Shown: positions 542 through 10,393 of the stretch, one piece after another
How positions within the stretch are numbered: position 1 is the first letter of the stretch
Layout of the letters: each line of letters begins with the position of its first letter
Made by a program: the position numbers and the translations under genes
Notes under the pieces: generated by a model
The model's input: only the letters and a program-made list of their open reading frames with translations
What the model was told of the DNA's origin: nothing
Database searches by the model: none
Source: Methanocaldococcus sp. 28A
GTDB taxonomy: Archaea; AGJL01; Methanococci; Methanococcales; Methanocaldococcaceae
NCBI GenBank assembly: GCA_049852185.1
Contig: CP187541.1
Direction: 5' to 3' (one strand)
DNA: 10,393 bases

Positions 542-575
542 ATAGTGATGTAATTAAATCAATTGATATTGATAG
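542..575 (+). repeat. 34-bp direct repeat, intergenic copy (ATAGTGATGTAATTAAATCAATTGATATTGATAG)
   Basis: Exact match to 1235-1268, or 37/38 if extended by 4 nt. Contains the palindrome ATCAATTGAT (558-567). Recurs at 4438-4471 and 8334-8367. Confidence 0.93.
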
Positions 576-675
576 TATAATTATGATATCACACAATTTT
601 AGAAACTTAAGTTTCCAAAGAAATTTTGTTTTAAAAAAGCTAAAACGGTTCTAGTTGTTTTTTTTGATGTAAATC

Positions 676-863: not shown

Positions 864-895
864 GTATGTAACTGTCAATAGCATTAAGTTGGGAA

Positions 896-932
896 AGGTA
901 GGGGGTGCCTCTAAGAGGCCAGCCCCCTACCT
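896..932. promoter_or_regulatory. GC-rich stem-loop upstream of mcm
   Basis: AGGTAGGGGG (896-905) pairs with CCCCCTACCT (923-932). The inner stem is GCCTC-TAA-GAGGC (907-919). It can be extended by AGTTGG (887-892) pairing with CTAACT (933-938). It is the only GC-rich island in the intergenic region. Recurs at 4792-4828 and 8688-8724. Confidence 0.8.
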
Positions 933-952
933 CTAACTAAAAACAAAGTATT

Positions 953-959
953 GGAGGTG
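953..959 (+). promoter_or_regulatory. Ribosome-binding site GGAGGTG for mcm
   Basis: Strong archaeal-type Shine-Dalgarno sequence 7 nt before ATG 967, which supports this start codon. Confidence 0.8.
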
Positions 960-966
960 TAAGGCA

Positions 967-3849
967 ATGAATAATATTAGTCCAAATAATATAAATACTT
1001 CACTAAATATCAGTTCCAAATACTCAAATGTAGAAATAAATCCAATATTGAAAGCAAACATTAAAGCTCTTTTGGAATTCCTAAAAGCTAAATTTAACAA
1101 TTCCATTGACTTAGAGAAAGCTGAAAAATTTGCATATAACAGAGGTTTAATAGATGAAAAAGGACACCTCACTGAAAAAGGTATGGAAATTTTAACAGTC
1201 TTATTCAGGTTGTTTCCAGACATTGATTTTACAAATAGTGATGTAATTAAATCAATTGATATTGATAGCATACTTAGAAAGTTAGAGACCCTATCCCAAA
1301 ATTCCACTTCTGGAAATGAGTGTTGCCAACAGGAGCCAACAGTTGCCAACTTTGAAACTGAGTATAAATCGTTTGCCAACTTTGAAAAAGACGTGCCAAC
1401 TTTTGCCAACTTTGAAAATAAGATGCCAATAGTTGCCAACAACGAATTGGCAAAAGTTGGCATTGCCAACAACGAATTGGCAAAAGTTGGCATTGCCAAC
1501 AATACTATGATAAATATGACAAATATGGATGATGTGTTATGTGTTATACTCAATAAGTTCGATATCTTAAAAGAAGATATTAGAAAATTAGCAAATGAAA
1601 TTAGAAAAGAAAAGAAAATTAGTAAGACTTTCGGCAAATCTTCCTTTTATGACATAATGAAATGGTTATTAACAGATAAATGCGTTGATACTCGATATAT
1701 TGCTGAGAATATAAAGAATCTAAACGCTTCATTGGGTTCCTACAAAGCAGATTTAGCATACCTCAACAAAATAGGATGGATATATGAGGATTTAGATGGG
1801 TTATATAAGTTGAATGTTGAGAAATTTTTATCAGATTTAGAGAGAGCAGGATTGATAAACAAGTTGCATTATGAAAGGGAGTTAGAGAATGCTTCATATA
1901 ATGAGATATGGGACCTTGACCAAAAGTATTACAGTTTAAATGTTGATGAGAATGGGGTTTTTAAGTTTGAATTTGGAGATAAAACACTGGAACAATATTA
2001 TTTGTCCTCAATGATATTAAATGAAACAAAAGTATTGATTAATAGGCTACAAAAAGAGTATTTTAAGAATTGGAGAAAAGAAAATTTAAAAGAAATTGTT
2101 GATTGTGAAGATGATACTTTATTGTTTCCGTTAATAAAGTGTCACTTTACGAATATTCCAATATCTGCGACTGAATGTATCCAATATCCAGACCCTTCAA
2201 AGGTTGGAAAACTTGTGGTTGTAGAGGCGGAGATATTAGAGGCAACACCAATAAAGAACATAGTAATTTGTGGAGAGTATTCAGAATATTTAGATGATGA
2301 CGAGCCACATATAGAATATTTTGACTTGAACACCAAGAAAATTCCAGAAACAATAAAGATTAAGACAGAAGATGGAGTAAAAGAGCTAAAATTAATTAGA
2401 AAATACATTCATACTGTTCAAGAGTTCCTACTACAACAGCCAATCGATGAATTAAACCCTAAAGAAGAGCCTAAGCCAATAAAGGGAGTGTGGATAGGAG
2501 CTGAAGGATTGTTTGATATAGGGGCCAAGGTAAGAATTGTTGGAATTTTGGACATCGATAAAAGTGATAGACCTATATCTCCTTATGTAATAAGAATTTT
2601 GCGAATTGAGGAGATAGAAGAGTTTTCTTATGGTCTTAGTGAGGAAGATATTAAAATAGCCAAAGAGTACTATGAGAGCAGAGGCGGAGATTTATTTAAG
2701 ATAGCAGATGATTTGCTCCCTAACATTATAGGTAATAAGCTGTTGAAAGTTGCTATATTGTTGCAGTTATGTAATGTGGAATCAGAGCCGAGAGATGGCT
2801 TTAATTGGAATCTACATATATTACTTGTCGGGGACCCTTCAACAGGAAAATCAAGAATTCTGAAGAGAGTTTATAATCTCTTCCCAAATAACCAATATGT
2901 TGATTTAACTAATGCGACACAAGCGGGTTTAGTTGGAGCAATGGAGGCAGTAAAAGGATACTTGGGGGAAGTGTATACCTTCAAAAGAGGAGCAATGCCA
3001 AAGGCTAATGGAGCAGTGTTATGCTTAGATGAGAAAGGAAATAAGGACACTTACAAATATTTTAACACATCTATGGAGGATGGATTTACAACGGTCAAGA
3101 AAAGAGGAAGAGATATAAAATTAAAAACAAATTGTGCTTATTTGTGGGCGTGCAATCCAAAGAAGGAAAAATTTGATTTGGATAAAACGATAACAGAGCA
3201 AATAGATATTCCAGAGTCAATATTATCAAGGTTTGATATTGTGGTTGCATTATTCAACCAATCGAAGGAACTAAATGAGATTGAGGATATTATAGATGCA
3301 ATTTTAGGAGAGGGCGAAAAAGATAAGGTAGATGATGATGTTTTAAGAAGATATATTTTGTATGCGAGAACCTTTAATCCGAAGATACCTAAAGAAATTA
3401 GGAAAGAAATTGCCAAATACTATCATCAATTACAAGGGAAGAGTTACTTAATGGATGCGAGAGTCGTAAAATCATTGTTAAAGCTAGTTAGGGCTATTGC
3501 AAAAGCACACTTAAGAAATGAAGTTATGAAAGAAGATTTTGAACTTGCAAAGAAAATATACCAAATGTATTTAGACACTGTCTTATACGACCCGGAAAGT
3601 GGAGTATATGACTTTGGAAAATTAGGAAAAGCTACGAAATCAGAAAGAGAAAAAATGGATAAAATAGTTGAGATAATAAAAGAGATTGCTAAAGATAGGG
3701 CTGACAACTTAGTTCCACAAACAGAGATTGAAGAGAAAGCTAAAGAGATGTTAGGAATTGATGAGAATGAAGTGGAAAGATTATTAAAGAAACTTGAAAA
3801 GATTGGCGAAATTCATGAGCCAAGAGCTGGCATATGGGGAGTATTATAA
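967..3849 (+). CDS. mcm: MCM-family AAA+ helicase with long N-terminal extension, putative plasmid replication protein (960 aa)
   Basis: Walker [14 protein letters not shown] (GDPSTGKS at 2830-2853), Walker B VLCLDE (3016-3033), sensor 1 WACNPK, arginine finger LSRFD (SRFD at 3226-3237), sensor 2-like [13 protein letters not shown]-fold motifs [11 protein letters not shown] / QEFLLQQP / [10 protein letters not shown], and C-terminal winged helix [17 protein letters not shown]. Confidence 0.95.
1235..1268 (+). repeat. 34-bp direct repeat, copy inside mcm (encodes [11 protein letters not shown])
   Basis: Exact match to 542-575, 693 bp upstream. Recurs at 5131-5164 and 9027-9060. Confidence 0.93.
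1321..1500. repeat. Array of (TT)GCCAAC boxes inside mcm, iteron-like
   Basis: GCCAAC ends at 1330, 1340, 1350, 1380, 1400, 1410, 1440, 1470 and 1500, with GCCAAT ending at 1430. Inverted TTGGCA copies start at 1447, 1457, 1477 and 1487. There is an exact 30-bp duplication (1441-1470 and 1471-1500) and three copies of TTGCCAACTTTGAAA. Recurs at 5217-5396 and 9113-9292. Confidence 0.92.
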
Positions 3850-3877
3850 TATTGGCTTATTACAAAAATATTAATCA

Positions 3878-3883
3878 AGGTGA
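3878..3883 (+). promoter_or_regulatory. Ribosome-binding site AGGTGA for the acylphosphatase-like gene
   Basis: AGGTGA-AACT-ATG is the typical methanococcal RBS arrangement and supports ATG 3888 over ATG 3834. Confidence 0.8.
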
Positions 3884-3887
3884 AACT

Positions 3888-4340
3888 ATGGCAACGACTT
3901 ATGAGATAATCATTTATGGGAGGGTCCAACATGTTGGGTTTAGGGATAGGATAGAAAATATAGGCAGAGGTTTAGGTATTAGTGGAATAATATATAACTA
4001 TAAGGATGGGACAGTTAGGATATTAGCAAACTTTGATTCAGAAAGGAAGAAAAAACTATTCAAGGAATTTATTAAGGAACTTGAAGATGTAGATAACCTT
4101 ATAAAAATAGAGAGGATTGAAGAGAGAGAACTAAATACATACATTGAATTTCCAGAGGGGATTAATAGAATATCAGCAGATGATTTAATAGAGCTAAATA
4201 AAAAGTTGGATGAAGGAGTGAAGTATATTAAGTTTATATTTGGGGAGTTAGAGGAACATAAAAAGATTTTAATTGAGATAAAAGACACGCTATATGAAAT
4301 AAAGGAAATTCTTAAAAATAACAGCAATGCACAAAAATAA
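3888..4340 (+). CDS. Acylphosphatase-like protein with C-terminal coiled coil (150 aa, copy 2)
   Basis: [10 protein letters not shown] resembles the acylphosphatase signature GxVQGVGFR, and NYKDGTV matches NxxDGxV, so the Arg and Asn are retained. The tail [40 protein letters not shown] is heptad-like. The start was moved from 3834 to 3888 on RBS evidence. Confidence 0.88.
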
Positions 4341-4862
4341 TACTTGTATGGTAATCAAACTGGATATAAGTTTCTTTTCTTGCTTAAGCAAATTTTCTCT
4401 CAAAACTTGTTAAAAAATCGCTTAATATCAGTTGTAGATAGTGATGTAATTAAATCAATTGATATTGATAGTATAATTATGATATCACACAATTTTAGAA
4501 ACTTAAGTTTCCAAAGAAATTTTGTTTTAAAAAAGCTAAAACGGTTCTAGTTGTTTTTTTTGATGTAAATCTTAAAGTAAACTACTTTAAATTGATTATT
4601 ATAATTTTTCCAGCTCTGCCTTTCAATTTCTTAATTAATTTAATCCCTCTTTTAAAGATATTAAAACAACCAACTAACTGTCTATTAAAATACTTTTTAC
4701 AATTAGAGCAATATCTTACTTATATTATAAACCTTTTGGGTTAATAAAAACCTATAAATGTATGTAACTGTCAATAGCATTAAGTTGGGAAAGGTAGGGG
4801 GTGCCTCTAAGAGGCCAGCCCCCTACCTCTAACTAAAAACAAAGTATTGGAGGTGTAAGGCA

Positions 4863-7745
4863 ATGAATAATATTAGTCCAAATAATATAAATACTTCACT
4901 AAATATCAGTTCCAAATACTCAAATGTAGAAATAAATCCAATATTGAAAGCAAACATTAAAGCTCTTTTGGAATTCCTAAAAGCTAAATTTAACAATTCC
5001 ATTGACTTAGAGAAAGCTGAAAAATTTGCATATAACAGAGGTTTAATAGATGAAAAAGGACACCTCACTGAAAAAGGTATGGAAATTTTAACAGTCTTAT
5101 TCAGGTTGTTTCCAGACATTGATTTTACAAATAGTGATGTAATTAAATCAATTGATATTGATAGCATACTTAGAAAGTTAGAGACCCTATCCCAAAATTC
5201 CACTTCTGGAAATGAGTGTTGCCAACAGGAGCCAACAGTTGCCAACTTTGAAACTGAGTATAAATCGTTTGCCAACTTTGAAAAAGACGTGCCAACTTTT
5301 GCCAACTTTGAAAATAAGATGCCAATAGTTGCCAACAACGAATTGGCAAAAGTTGGCATTGCCAACAACGAATTGGCAAAAGTTGGCATTGCCAACAATA
5401 CTATGATAAATATGACAAATATGGATGATGTGTTATGTGTTATACTCAATAAGTTCGATATCTTAAAAGAAGATATTAGAAAATTAGCAAATGAAATTAG
5501 AAAAGAAAAGAAAATTAGTAAGACTTTCGGCAAATCTTCCTTTTATGACATAATGAAATGGTTATTAACAGATAAATGCGTTGATACTCGATATATTGCT
5601 GAGAATATAAAGAATCTAAACGCTTCATTGGGTTCCTACAAAGCAGATTTAGCATACCTCAACAAAATAGGATGGATATATGAGGATTTAGATGGGTTAT
5701 ATAAGTTGAATGTTGAGAAATTTTTATCAGATTTAGAGAGAGCAGGATTGATAAACAAGTTGCATTATGAAAGGGAGTTAGAGAATGCTTCATATAATGA
5801 GATATGGGACCTTGACCAAAAGTATTACAGTTTAAATGTTGATGAGAATGGGGTTTTTAAGTTTGAATTTGGAGATAAAACACTGGAACAATATTATTTG
5901 TCCTCAATGATATTAAATGAAACAAAAGTATTGATTAATAGGCTACAAAAAGAGTATTTTAAGAATTGGAGAAAAGAAAATTTAAAAGAAATTGTTGATT
6001 GTGAAGATGATACTTTATTGTTTCCGTTAATAAAGTGTCACTTTACGAATATTCCAATATCTGCGACTGAATGTATCCAATATCCAGACCCTTCAAAGGT
6101 TGGAAAACTTGTGGTTGTAGAGGCGGAGATATTAGAGGCAACACCAATAAAGAACATAGTAATTTGTGGAGAGTATTCAGAATATTTAGATGATGACGAG
6201 CCACATATAGAATATTTTGACTTGAACACCAAGAAAATTCCAGAAACAATAAAGATTAAGACAGAAGATGGAGTAAAAGAGCTAAAATTAATTAGAAAAT
6301 ACATTCATACTGTTCAAGAGTTCCTACTACAACAGCCAATCGATGAATTAAACCCTAAAGAAGAGCCTAAGCCAATAAAGGGAGTGTGGATAGGAGCTGA
6401 AGGATTGTTTGATATAGGGGCCAAGGTAAGAATTGTTGGAATTTTGGACATCGATAAAAGTGATAGACCTATATCTCCTTATGTAATAAGAATTTTGCGA
6501 ATTGAGGAGATAGAAGAGTTTTCTTATGGTCTTAGTGAGGAAGATATTAAAATAGCCAAAGAGTACTATGAGAGCAGAGGCGGAGATTTATTTAAGATAG
6601 CAGATGATTTGCTCCCTAACATTATAGGTAATAAGCTGTTGAAAGTTGCTATATTGTTGCAGTTATGTAATGTGGAATCAGAGCCGAGAGATGGCTTTAA
6701 TTGGAATCTACATATATTACTTGTCGGGGACCCTTCAACAGGAAAATCAAGAATTCTGAAGAGAGTTTATAATCTCTTCCCAAATAACCAATATGTTGAT
6801 TTAACTAATGCGACACAAGCGGGTTTAGTTGGAGCAATGGAGGCAGTAAAAGGATACTTGGGGGAAGTGTATACCTTCAAAAGAGGAGCAATGCCAAAGG
6901 CTAATGGAGCAGTGTTATGCTTAGATGAGAAAGGAAATAAGGACACTTACAAATATTTTAACACATCTATGGAGGATGGATTTACAACGGTCAAGAAAAG
7001 AGGAAGAGATATAAAATTAAAAACAAATTGTGCTTATTTGTGGGCGTGCAATCCAAAGAAGGAAAAATTTGATTTGGATAAAACGATAACAGAGCAAATA
7101 GATATTCCAGAGTCAATATTATCAAGGTTTGATATTGTGGTTGCATTATTCAACCAATCGAAGGAACTAAATGAGATTGAGGATATTATAGATGCAATTT
7201 TAGGAGAGGGCGAAAAAGATAAGGTAGATGATGATGTTTTAAGAAGATATATTTTGTATGCGAGAACCTTTAATCCGAAGATACCTAAAGAAATTAGGAA
7301 AGAAATTGCCAAATACTATCATCAATTACAAGGGAAGAGTTACTTAATGGATGCGAGAGTCGTAAAATCATTGTTAAAGCTAGTTAGGGCTATTGCAAAA
7401 GCACACTTAAGAAATGAAGTTATGAAAGAAGATTTTGAACTTGCAAAGAAAATATACCAAATGTATTTAGACACTGTCTTATACGACCCGGAAAGTGGAG
7501 TATATGACTTTGGAAAATTAGGAAAAGCTACGAAATCAGAAAGAGAAAAAATGGATAAAATAGTTGAGATAATAAAAGAGATTGCTAAAGATAGGGCTGA
7601 CAACTTAGTTCCACAAACAGAGATTGAAGAGAAAGCTAAAGAGATGTTAGGAATTGATGAGAATGAAGTGGAAAGATTATTAAAGAAACTTGAAAAGATT
7701 GGCGAAATTCATGAGCCAAGAGCTGGCATATGGGGAGTATTATAA
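4863..7745 (+). CDS. mcm: MCM-family helicase, putative replication protein (copy 2)
   Basis: Translation identical to 967-3849. Confidence 0.95.
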
Positions 7746-8236: not shown

Positions 8237-8758
8237 TACTTGTATGGTAATCAAACTGGATATAAGTTTCTTTTCTTGCTTAAGCAAATTTTCTCTCAAA
8301 ACTTGTTAAAAAATCGCTTAATATCAGTTGTAGATAGTGATGTAATTAAATCAATTGATATTGATAGTATAATTATGATATCACACAATTTTAGAAACTT
8401 AAGTTTCCAAAGAAATTTTGTTTTAAAAAAGCTAAAACGGTTCTAGTTGTTTTTTTTGATGTAAATCTTAAAGTAAACTACTTTAAATTGATTATTATAA
8501 TTTTTCCAGCTCTGCCTTTCAATTTCTTAATTAATTTAATCCCTCTTTTAAAGATATTAAAACAACCAACTAACTGTCTATTAAAATACTTTTTACAATT
8601 AGAGCAATATCTTACTTATATTATAAACCTTTTGGGTTAATAAAAACCTATAAATGTATGTAACTGTCAATAGCATTAAGTTGGGAAAGGTAGGGGGTGC
8701 CTCTAAGAGGCCAGCCCCCTACCTCTAACTAAAAACAAAGTATTGGAGGTGTAAGGCA

Positions 8759-10393
8759 ATGAATAATATTAGTCCAAATAATATAAATACTTCACTAAAT
8801 ATCAGTTCCAAATACTCAAATGTAGAAATAAATCCAATATTGAAAGCAAACATTAAAGCTCTTTTGGAATTCCTAAAAGCTAAATTTAACAATTCCATTG
8901 ACTTAGAGAAAGCTGAAAAATTTGCATATAACAGAGGTTTAATAGATGAAAAAGGACACCTCACTGAAAAAGGTATGGAAATTTTAACAGTCTTATTCAG
9001 GTTGTTTCCAGACATTGATTTTACAAATAGTGATGTAATTAAATCAATTGATATTGATAGCATACTTAGAAAGTTAGAGACCCTATCCCAAAATTCCACT
9101 TCTGGAAATGAGTGTTGCCAACAGGAGCCAACAGTTGCCAACTTTGAAACTGAGTATAAATCGTTTGCCAACTTTGAAAAAGACGTGCCAACTTTTGCCA
9201 ACTTTGAAAATAAGATGCCAATAGTTGCCAACAACGAATTGGCAAAAGTTGGCATTGCCAACAACGAATTGGCAAAAGTTGGCATTGCCAACAATACTAT
9301 GATAAATATGACAAATATGGATGATGTGTTATGTGTTATACTCAATAAGTTCGATATCTTAAAAGAAGATATTAGAAAATTAGCAAATGAAATTAGAAAA
9401 GAAAAGAAAATTAGTAAGACTTTCGGCAAATCTTCCTTTTATGACATAATGAAATGGTTATTAACAGATAAATGCGTTGATACTCGATATATTGCTGAGA
9501 ATATAAAGAATCTAAACGCTTCATTGGGTTCCTACAAAGCAGATTTAGCATACCTCAACAAAATAGGATGGATATATGAGGATTTAGATGGGTTATATAA
9601 GTTGAATGTTGAGAAATTTTTATCAGATTTAGAGAGAGCAGGATTGATAAACAAGTTGCATTATGAAAGGGAGTTAGAGAATGCTTCATATAATGAGATA
9701 TGGGACCTTGACCAAAAGTATTACAGTTTAAATGTTGATGAGAATGGGGTTTTTAAGTTTGAATTTGGAGATAAAACACTGGAACAATATTATTTGTCCT
9801 CAATGATATTAAATGAAACAAAAGTATTGATTAATAGGCTACAAAAAGAGTATTTTAAGAATTGGAGAAAAGAAAATTTAAAAGAAATTGTTGATTGTGA
9901 AGATGATACTTTATTGTTTCCGTTAATAAAGTGTCACTTTACGAATATTCCAATATCTGCGACTGAATGTATCCAATATCCAGACCCTTCAAAGGTTGGA
10001 AAACTTGTGGTTGTAGAGGCGGAGATATTAGAGGCAACACCAATAAAGAACATAGTAATTTGTGGAGAGTATTCAGAATATTTAGATGATGACGAGCCAC
10101 ATATAGAATATTTTGACTTGAACACCAAGAAAATTCCAGAAACAATAAAGATTAAGACAGAAGATGGAGTAAAAGAGCTAAAATTAATTAGAAAATACAT
10201 TCATACTGTTCAAGAGTTCCTACTACAACAGCCAATCGATGAATTAAACCCTAAAGAAGAGCCTAAGCCAATAAAGGGAGTGTGGATAGGAGCTGAAGGA
10301 TTGTTTGATATAGGGGCCAAGGTAAGAATTGTTGGAATTTTGGACATCGATAAAAGTGATAGACCTATATCTCCTTATGTAATAAGAATTTTG
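8759..10393 (+). CDS. mcm: MCM-family helicase (copy 3, truncated by the window end)
   Basis: ATGAATAATATT at 8759, and the sequence matches 967-2601 up to the window edge. It is missing from the ORF track because no stop codon is reached. Confidence 0.93.
   Translation, partial: MNNISPNNINTSLNISSKYSNVEINPILKANIKALLEFLKAKFNNSIDLEKAEKFAYNRGLIDEKGHLTEKGMEILTVLFRLFPDIDFTNSDVIKSIDIDSILRKLETLSQNSTSGNECCQQEPTVANFETEYKSFANFEKDVPTFANFENKMPIVANNELAKVGIANNELAKVGIANNTMINMTNMDDVLCVILNKFDILKEDIRKLANEIRKEKKISKTFGKSSFYDIMKWLLTDKCVDTRYIAENIKNLNASLGSYKADLAYLNKIGWIYEDLDGLYKLNVEKFLSDLERAGLINKLHYERELENASYNEIWDLDQKYYSLNVDENGVFKFEFGDKTLEQYYLSSMILNETKVLINRLQKEYFKNWRKENLKEIVDCEDDTLLFPLIKCHFTNIPISATECIQYPDPSKVGKLVVVEAEILEATPIKNIVICGEYSEYLDDDEPHIEYFDLNTKKIPETIKIKTEDGVKELKLIRKYIHTVQEFLLQQPIDELNPKEEPKPIKGVWIGAEGLFDIGAKVRIVGILDIDKSDRPISPYVIRIL

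Follow-up and report, generated by a model that had tools for sequence, protein, structure and literature searches.

A box array on a 10-bp lattice inside the MCM helicase gene of a Methanocaldococcus plasmid: a candidate intragenic origin of replication

The window analysed here, a 10,393-base stretch of DNA from Methanocaldococcus sp. 28A (contig CP187541.1), holds a small cryptic plasmid of this hyperthermophilic methanogen, with a gene for an MCM-family helicase (967–3849, plus strand; assigned from the open reading frame list and Pfam). The helicase has 960 amino acids and carries an N-terminal extension of about 350 residues, composed of a domain D1, a linker, and a domain D2. An array of short boxes on an exact 10-bp lattice lies at 1321–1500, within the code for the linker. 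From sequence comparison, we hold with moderate confidence that these boxes are iteron-type initiator-binding sites, which form an origin, or its loading site, within the rep gene. The lattice and its dyads are conserved at the level of DNA, the boxes are restricted to the array, the array and D2 are swapped jointly between relatives, and an AT-rich tract adjoins the array. On this pattern, the MCM protein would bind the boxes, D2 would be the reader, the region would act as an origin, and its occupation may regulate the gene itself.

Results

A lattice of boxes in the linker code

The array comprises ten direct GCCAAY boxes and four inverted ones. On the plus strand, the direct boxes start at 1325, 1335, 1345, 1375, 1395, 1405, 1425, 1435, 1465, and 1495, which gives spacings of 10, 10, 30, 20, 10, 20, 10, 30, and 30 bp and places all ten in one class modulo 10. 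An initial annotation, made from the letters of the window, had described these ten boxes and their spacings, and every detail that it gave was reproduced. The boxes are read in three frames, again as annotated: six in frame 0 (GCC-AAC), three in frame 2 (CCA-ACn or CCA-ATA), and one in frame 1 (TGC-CAA). They therefore cannot be the by-product of a repeated peptide. The inverted boxes, on the minus strand at 1446, 1456, 1476, and 1486, also occupy a single lattice class, offset by 1 bp from that of the direct boxes. Two boxes placed head to head form a perfect 15-bp dyad, GTTGGCA-t-TGCCAAC, at 1456–1470, and a second such dyad closes the distal end of the array (1486–1500). The arrangement TTGCCAA-N7-TTGGCAA occurs at 1433–1453 and 1463–1483; for these pairs and for both palindromes, our coordinates agreed with those of the annotation. 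Iteron-type origins are recognized by at least three clustered, regularly spaced direct sites, and the array has ten in 176 bp. The lattice of exactly 10.0 bp drifts against the 10.5-bp helical repeat by most of one turn across 180 bp. Bound proteins would therefore follow a spiral path round the DNA, or else the double helix would be overwound or wrapped, and the earlier proposal that the sites share one face of the helix holds only approximately.

Gene and repeat counts in the window are tripled, because the contig is a concatemer of a 3,896-bp unit. Further copies of the array lie at 5217–5396 and 9113–9292; these three copies per window, and a conserved GC-rich stem-loop upstream of the gene, were absent from the initial annotation. 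GCCAAY was counted 52 times in the window, compared with 6.85 ± 2.33 in shuffled sequences, and none of 200 shuffles reached 52. Within one unit, 14 of the 18 occurrences fall between 1325 and 1500. The array region contains the 7-mer TGCCAAY 13 times, and the remainder of the plasmid lacks it. All 18 genome-wide occurrences of the double box GCCAAYN4GCCAAY are on the plasmid contig, with none on the 1.55-Mb chromosome. Redrawing the codons from the gene's own usage, with the peptide preserved, gave a mean of 2.2 boxes against the observed 14 (reached in 0 of 5000 redraws), and three relatives described below (L001, L002, and L004) gave the same outcome; resampling and lattice statistics of this kind overstate independence, because the repeat units descend from one another. 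The alanine codon GCC accounts for 6 of 8 Ala codons in the array region and for 3 of 43 outside it. On the host chromosome, TRF returned three period-30 and seven period-10 arrays, all weak and AT-rich, none of which resembles the plasmid array.

Relatives keep the array and change the box

We compared the window plasmid (W) with ten metagenomic loci and with the plasmid pMETVU02 (L001). Arrays were measured in a close clade (W, L001, L002, L004, and L005) and in a distant one (L006 and L008–L011). Wherever a relative has the region, a repeat array occupies this position in the linker, and its box varies. In the close clade, the box is TGCCAAC in W, TATTAAC in pMETVU02, TACCAACGG in L002, L003, and L005, and YTAACAA in L004. 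The boxes of each array occupy a single 10-bp lattice class in mixed reading frames (10/10 boxes in W, 8/9 in L001, 8/9 in L002, 11/12 in L004, and 6/7 in L005). Across the five close-clade arrays, the Rayleigh R reached 0.98–1.0 for period 10, whereas it did not exceed 0.48 for periods 9, 11, 12, and 15. A perfect dyad of the array's own box was present in all five, in the forms GTTGGCA-t-TGCCAAC (W), GTTAATA-a-TATTAAC, CGTTGGTA-a-TACCAACG, and TAACAACA-ac-TGTTGTTA. Each dyad is built of its own box; both arms have therefore changed together. The boxes were concentrated in the arrays, with counts inside the array and on the rest of the plasmid or contig of 13 and 0 for W, 10 and 3 for L001, 9 and 3 for L002, 13 and 6 for L004, and 8 and 0 for L005. 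In the distant clade, the box is GACCACA or RACCAACA.

The initial annotation had proposed that the conserved unit is DNA rather than peptide, and the comparison supported this. W and L002 have a common spacing series, 10(11)-10-30-20-10-20-10-30, with a box that differs by one base throughout and linker peptides that are 22% identical. The linker peptide of W is 20–29% identical to those of the homologues P0003–P0006 and P0008, which are 7–54% identical among themselves. Homologues keep the lattice while the peptide diverges, which is the reverse of the outcome that the annotation had named as speaking against its proposal. Between L002 and L005, no substitution was found in 56 box columns, compared with 12 in 90 non-box columns (Fisher p 0.0035). 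Linker lengths within clusters of 90% identity were 70/80/90, 89/69, and 88/68 aa; these steps of 30 or 60 bp (10 or 20 aa) preserve both the reading frame and the lattice.

The nearest named relative, pMETVU02 (NC_013409.1; 4,704 bp), belongs to Methanocaldococcus vulcanius M7, a genome of the same genus (G016). Its MCM protein is 65% identical to that of W over 98% of the protein. The two plasmids are of one family, which is built of two genes on 4–5 kb, and pMETVU02 shares with W both the position of the array and the stem-loop upstream of the gene. Its second gene, unlike that of W, encodes a hypothetical protein on the opposite strand. Its D2 is 47% identical to that of W and represents a different D2 type. 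The public record of pMETVU02 contains two coding sequences, with no repeat or origin feature annotated, so that the likely origin of this family is unmarked there.

Two folded domains flank the disordered linker that the array encodes

Residues 1–348 were modelled with AlphaFold2 (AF2) from nine sequences. The linker (aa 111–185) is unstructured, with a pLDDT of about 25 (23–34 over aa 111–180 and below 50 throughout aa 111–185). The array provides the codons for aa 119–178, inside this disordered stretch and flanked by D1 and D2, in line with the annotated linker between domains.

D1 (aa 25–111, encoded on the plus strand at 1039–1299) was modelled as a small helical domain, with a pLDDT of 75–86 in the 348-residue model and of 91.5 when folded alone. 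No clear fold match was obtained for D1, the best structural match having a Z score of only 5.0. A few winged-helix rows, namely the C-terminal domain of Cdt1 and MarR, appeared at Z 3.8–4.5, and a Pfam match of the winged helix–turn–helix (wHTH) kind fell below the cut-off.

D2 (aa 186–322, plus strand, 1522–1932) had a pLDDT of 83–93. The best VIA-align match reached Z 8.2 with 96 aligned residues and a root mean square deviation of 6.2, and the top rows were nearly all winged helices, predominantly DNA-binding ones (Fur/PerR, ArsR, MarR, TFE-alpha, and the RPA32 winged helix). Foldseek matches of D2 were weak and of the winged-helix kind (E ≥ 0.29); for the whole 348-residue model, Foldseek returned nothing at E ≤ 0.001. 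D2 had no Pfam match, and a sequence-profile search of the PDB gave one chance match (E 0.11). From the model and these matches, we assigned D2 to the winged-helix fold, with putative DNA binding, and propose it as the reader of the boxes.

Two irregular gene forms were seen in the distant clade. In L008 (around 944–962), L009, and L011, the gene is split inside D2 by a run of six A residues, where in-frame relatives have seven (L006, around 232–250). The split leaves a protein of about 200 aa, which contains D1, the array, and part of D2, together with a helicase of 710 aa, and may reflect a homopolymer error, a genuine division of the gene, or a slippage site. In L010 (1490–2737), D1, the array, and D2 are fused to an unrelated C-terminal part with ATPase-like motifs, which replaces MCM. 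Either recombination of the element or a chimeric assembly would account for this joint.

Array and D2 are exchanged as one block

The DNA of pMETVU02 and L004 is 97–99% identical outside one sharply bounded 480-bp block. In each 60-nt window between a point 200 nt before the gene and the gene's end, 53–60 of 60 positions agreed, except at gene nt 341–820, where agreement fell abruptly to 27–38 of 60. This block comprises the array and the winged-helix part of D2 as far as the wing. D1 is 97% identical between the two, despite different boxes (TATTAAC and YTAACAA). A second pair, P0003 and P0005, which was compared at the protein level only, showed the same pattern, with identities of 94% in D1, 54% in the linker, 56% in D2, and 98–99% in the rest. 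A closer D2 pair is formed by P0005 and P0006 (71%). For the box of the second pair, the distal peptide V-S-A-T-N allows the guess of a CTAAC-type dyad.

Two backbones, each with two cassette types, are expected if binding sites and reader domain are matched. Co-variation of the sites with the specificity of the initiator between related replicons, a further mark of iteron-type systems, was found in these two pairs. The initial annotation had suggested looking in homologues for different phased repeats at the same position that co-vary with the winged helix; this is what we observed, with D2 as the winged helix concerned. It had also named the protein's own N-terminal domain as the reader. That view needs to be narrowed, since the co-swapped domain is D2, while D1 at the extreme N-terminus stays nearly constant as boxes and D2 change. 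The near-constancy of D1 points to D2 as the reader, and we consider that the reader is probably this winged helix, encoded just downstream of the array, rather than the extreme N-terminus.

An AT-rich tract follows the array and a stem-loop precedes the gene

The array is adjoined by an AT-rich tract (1501–1660, from GC windows), which is a candidate unwinding element. Its segment 1562–1621, at 16.7% GC, is the lowest 60-nt window in the whole MCM gene. In all five close-clade plasmids, the 60-nt window that ranks lowest, or close to lowest, in GC across the gene is at most 150 nt past the last box. The adjacent AT-rich element typical of iteron-type origins is thus present in 5/5, although it is partly driven by the peptide.

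A GC-rich stem-loop (890–935, plus strand; further copies at 4786–4831 and 8682–8727), with about 30 nt between it and the MCM start codon downstream, is conserved in all six close-clade sequences (W and L001–L005), where two of its 18 predicted pairs show compensatory changes, and it is the sole strongly conserved intergenic block. The stem-loop was not found in the distant clade (0/6 loci), whose arrays persist. It could be a structure of the 5′ untranslated region (5′-UTR), an operator, or part of an origin. The lowest-GC windows of the plasmid are intergenic (654–713 at 15% and 551–610 at 16.7%).

An intergenic segment of 42 nt (542–583, plus strand) is a 95% copy of coding positions 1235–1276, just upstream of the array. 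This copy is unique to W among five plasmids checked and may be the scar of a past recombination at the left border of the cassette. In L005, a 9,933-base contig, the stretch 1580–1731 corresponds to 6903–7052, so that a second stem-loop and the first 59 nt of the MCM gene are present (95%). The second copy precedes a different open reading frame, and the MCM gene of L005 is broken near nt 2600. The duplication suggests a shared promoter-leader module together with a degraded copy.

In two further Methanocaldococcus MCM plasmids, arrays of this build lie in non-coding DNA

On contig G003:C2, non-coding DNA contains 6.7 perfect copies of the 30-bp unit TTTATCC-gct TTTATCT-gtt GGATAAA-ggt, whose three 10-bp sub-sites hold two boxes in direct and one in inverted orientation. 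The array lies 0.46 kb upstream of a gene for a 778-aa MCM, with a small helix–turn–helix (HTH) gene in between. On G007:C2, GATAAG boxes at period 10 and an inverted pair are arranged as on G003:C2, and the box of both plasmids is GATAA-like. The MCM N-termini of these two plasmids are 49% identical to each other and contain neither D1 nor the linker. They align weakly with D2 (E 0.08), and the alignment obtained in the genome search begins at residue 206. Non-coding arrays thus share the 10/30-bp build, which is therefore not merely a consequence of coding. Judged by these sequences, the 10/30-bp array is apparently the usual repeat form beside the MCM genes of these plasmids, and in the pMETVU02 family it has become intragenic.

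A 190-bp repeat, in 2.8 copies, precedes the 30-bp array of G003:C2 (L050, 960–1498). The putative origin region of this plasmid would so be compound.

Replicon, neighbouring gene, and distribution

The window is the entire contig C2 of a two-contig genome of 1.556 Mb. It is a perfect head-to-tail 2.67-mer of the 3,896-bp unit, with 6497 of 6497 positions identical at period 3896, and reflects either a circular plasmid that was repeated in assembly or a genuine multimer. The unit has two co-directional genes and about 520 bp of intergenic DNA at 27% GC. Further copies of the MCM gene lie at 4863–7745 and 8759–10393, the latter incomplete at the end of the window. In the 960-aa protein, Pfam placed the MCM P-loop domain (PF00493) at aa 578–770 with E 5.5e-38, above the cut-off, and MCM_lid (PF17855) with E 7.1e-13.

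The second gene (3834–4340, plus strand) encodes an acylphosphatase-like protein of 168 aa (Pfam Acylphosphatase, E 2.7e-13), which has a helical tail at its C-terminus. As annotated, the gene starts within the end of the MCM gene, with an overlap of 16 nt; translation more likely begins at an internal Met 18 codons further on. A chromosomal paralogue is 79% identical (G000:C1:1471501-1471950), a relative with 70% identity is carried by another plasmid (L052), and the gene was not found in the remaining plasmid-family members examined. The gene is probably captured cargo, as the family members without it indicate.

MCM matches were present in 40/40 genomes of the order, and the full-length form with the N-terminal extension in two of them (G000 and G016). 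The N-terminal module is very rare: an exhaustive profile search of 1.84 billion proteins found six representatives at E ≤ 0.001. A second, word-based search with residues 1–348 returned seven proteins, none of them additional. The search of genome contigs revealed no additional plasmid relative, and that of viral contigs, with P0005 and the alignment as queries, no additional family member. The plasmid was traced in four sequencing runs, all of DNA and from one study, with a share of sampled words of 0.08–0.12; no RNA run among those searched carried it. Contigs from the four runs represent a mixture of related plasmids. Short unitigs from these runs are about 96% like the window over 1178–1462 and end inside the array; branch points in conserved stretches, being products of the assembly graph, were not counted as evidence.

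There are no tRNA genes in the window. A bacterial promoter and terminator scan was set aside as uninformative for archaeal DNA, as was the GC skew for placing the origin, since it mainly reflects the coding-strand bias of the two genes, which run in one direction. An antisense frame of 234 aa crosses the array (933–1637, minus strand). It is open in the window plasmid and in pMETVU02 and was rejected as a gene, being broken in L002, L004, and L005.

Discussion

In the reading that we favour, the array would provide cis-acting sites for the plasmid's own MCM-fusion initiator, written into the code of a disordered linker. Several copies of D2 would bind the direct boxes at a spacing of one turn. 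At the distal head-to-head dyad, beside the most AT-rich stretch of the gene, two helicase rings would assemble in opposite directions and the DNA would open. The plasmid would then need no separate initiator, in a host order without Cdc6/Orc1. Occupied sites would also obstruct transcription of the MCM gene and thereby couple copy number to the level of the initiator. More tentatively, we suggest that array and D2 may constitute an exchangeable origin-specificity cassette, and that an MCM double ring on the own-box dyad might start replication without a loader of the Orc1/Cdc6 type. With such a cassette, the 30-bp super-period would solve a double constraint, being a whole number both of codons and of helical turns.

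Several points weigh against the array as an intragenic origin. The repeat units are related by duplication, and concerted evolution without selection could be the cause of identical boxes. The distant-clade boxes are spaced by 9, 21, or 30 bp, nearly all in one frame, and an own-box dyad was present in none of the five arrays of this clade; a peptide-level or slippage origin of these arrays is possible. The AT-richness downstream of the array is partly forced by a conserved Lys/Glu/Asn-rich peptide. The structural scores of D2 are middling (Z ≤ 8.2), and the tool itself warns that such scores can reflect a common arrangement. The covariation of array and D2 rests on two near-isogenic pairs, one of them at the protein level only. 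For the non-coding arrays of G003:C2 and G007:C2, the small HTH protein could be the binder. In the fetched stretches of three of the five other MCM plasmids (L051, L052, and L054), TRF found no comparable array. Finally, the stem-loop and the AT-rich intergenic DNA, with its windows of 15–17% GC, may be an alternative place for the origin.

This last point leads to a different assignment, in which the array would bind protein as a control element, through roadblock autoregulation, handcuffing copy control, or incompatibility, and initiation would take place at the stem-loop and the AT-rich intergenic DNA. All of the DNA-level evidence for the array fits a control site equally. The stem-loop, kept in 6/6 close plasmids with two compensatory pairs and without a rival among the conserved intergenic blocks, suits such a start, as does the intergenic position of the lowest-GC windows. 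However, the stem-loop is preceded by a TATA-like element and followed some 30 nt later by the start codon, a position that suits a 5′-UTR or an operator too, and it was not found at the six distant-clade loci, where arrays are present. Own-box dyads beside an AT tract are, moreover, the usual build of a helicase-loading site, and the non-coding arrays of G003:C2 and G007:C2 occupy the normal place of plasmid origins. We therefore regard a purely regulatory array as unlikely, although it deserves to be kept in mind.

A hypervariable linker that is prone to slippage and serves no function as DNA would account for other features. Turnover would proceed by unequal recombination, and the cassette would be a recombination hot spot. 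The number of units does vary inside the 90% clusters, assemblies break in the array (L006, P0017, and P0018 begin there), the linker is disordered, and the distant-clade boxes lie in one frame and encode a T/N/E/K-rich peptide. Such turnover leaves unexplained why 10-bp sub-sites recur in three frames across four unrelated box sequences, why a perfect own-box dyad ends each array, and why the box is written with rare codons (GCC in 6/8 cases inside as against 3/43 outside). It explains neither the arrays of the same build in non-coding DNA beside other MCM genes nor the contrast between 0/56 substitutions in box columns and 12/90 in adjoining ones, and we consider it improbable. Less probable by far is a function in the peptide, as a repeated linker motif, or in the mRNA, where palindrome hairpins would regulate translation. 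The dyads could form 6-bp stems with 3-nt loops, and the distal peptide shows a recurring V-x-x-x-N. This motif is, however, the direct translation of the GTT...AAC dyad, and the lattice is kept at a linker identity to W of 20–29% (7–54% among homologues). Rfam gave a single, sub-threshold chance match (mir-2187; 31.6 bits against a gathering score of 67), and direct boxes at 10-bp spacing have no rationale in RNA structure.

On the more tentative view of a helicase that assembles as a double ring on its own coding sequence, the plasmid would parallel the viral initiator-helicases in archaea and present MCM self-loading in a minimal natural form. Methanococcales lack Cdc6/Orc1 (PMC3914693), and a self-targeting MCM in this order is of particular interest for that reason. 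For the question of how MCM is delivered to DNA in Methanococcales without Cdc6/Orc1, a 3.9-kb replicon would offer a very small test system. For replication, it encodes a single protein, an MCM joined to a putative site-specific DNA-binding module, with candidate sites in its own gene. The array would also be a case of dual coding, in which the same DNA would serve as protein code and as a phased binding array, and the natural variants reveal which changes are tolerated, namely 30-bp steps and dyad arms that change together. Compatible shuttle vectors for hyperthermophilic methanogens could be developed from this replicon and its specificity cassettes.

Our literature search on archaeal intragenic origins, iterons, MCM, and Methanocaldococcus plasmids yielded no description of such an array. 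The name pMETVU02 was not found by this search, which did not extend to supplementary files, where the plasmid could be listed; papers on hyperthermophile plasmids, searched by term, left the M. vulcanius plasmids unmentioned. An origin within an initiator gene is a known theme, to which the array, if it is an origin, would add a case in archaea and in an MCM gene.

The closest parallel is the lambdoid origin, with which the initial annotation had compared the array. The part of PMC7466680 dealing with these origins places iterons and an AT-rich region in the middle of gene O, where iteron number varies among relatives and extra iterons lengthen the O protein. The array of W likewise encodes an inter-domain linker, is followed by the most AT-rich window of its gene, and varies in steps of 30 or 60 bp. 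The analogy held in these respects and failed for the initiator itself, which has no sequence relationship to O: no phage O family appeared in Pfam at E up to 0.1, and the hits were to MCM, MCM_lid, and AAA+ relatives. In lambda, and putatively in the plasmid family, specificity modules of sites and reader domain differ between relatives. The reader domain of lambda is encoded upstream of the sites, whereas the co-swapped domain of the plasmid lies downstream. O recruits a separate helicase, while the plasmid initiator is fused to its MCM helicase, and the lambda iterons measure about 19 bp, in contrast to boxes of 6–7 bp on a strict 10-bp lattice. The plasmid array is thus an analogue of the lambda origin in O, not a member of that class.

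Bacterial plasmids offer further cases. In RepA_N plasmids such as pAD1 and pSK41, the oriV iterons lie in the central variable part of the rep gene. RepA_N proteins bind semi-palindromic iterons through their N-terminal domain, as described in the section of PMC7145576 on these proteins, and the repC gene of the repABC plasmid p42d contains oriV as an AT-rich region, for which the corresponding passage of PMC3155836 gives no iterons. These systems resemble the arrangement proposed for W in having the origin inside the initiator gene. They differ in having unrelated proteins, bacterial hosts, and initiators without a fused helicase.

The fusion itself has its counterpart in SV40 large T antigen and papillomavirus E1, which unite an origin-binding domain and a hexameric helicase in one polypeptide. 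In these viruses, short head-to-head boxes beside an AT tract direct the assembly of the double hexamer, and the own-box dyads and AT tract of the plasmid would follow the same logic. The analogy is one of mechanism alone. The viral proteins are SF3 helicases of eukaryotic viruses with non-coding origins, whereas the plasmid has an archaeal AAA+ protein of the MCM family, a winged-helix domain as its putative reader, and candidate sites within the gene.

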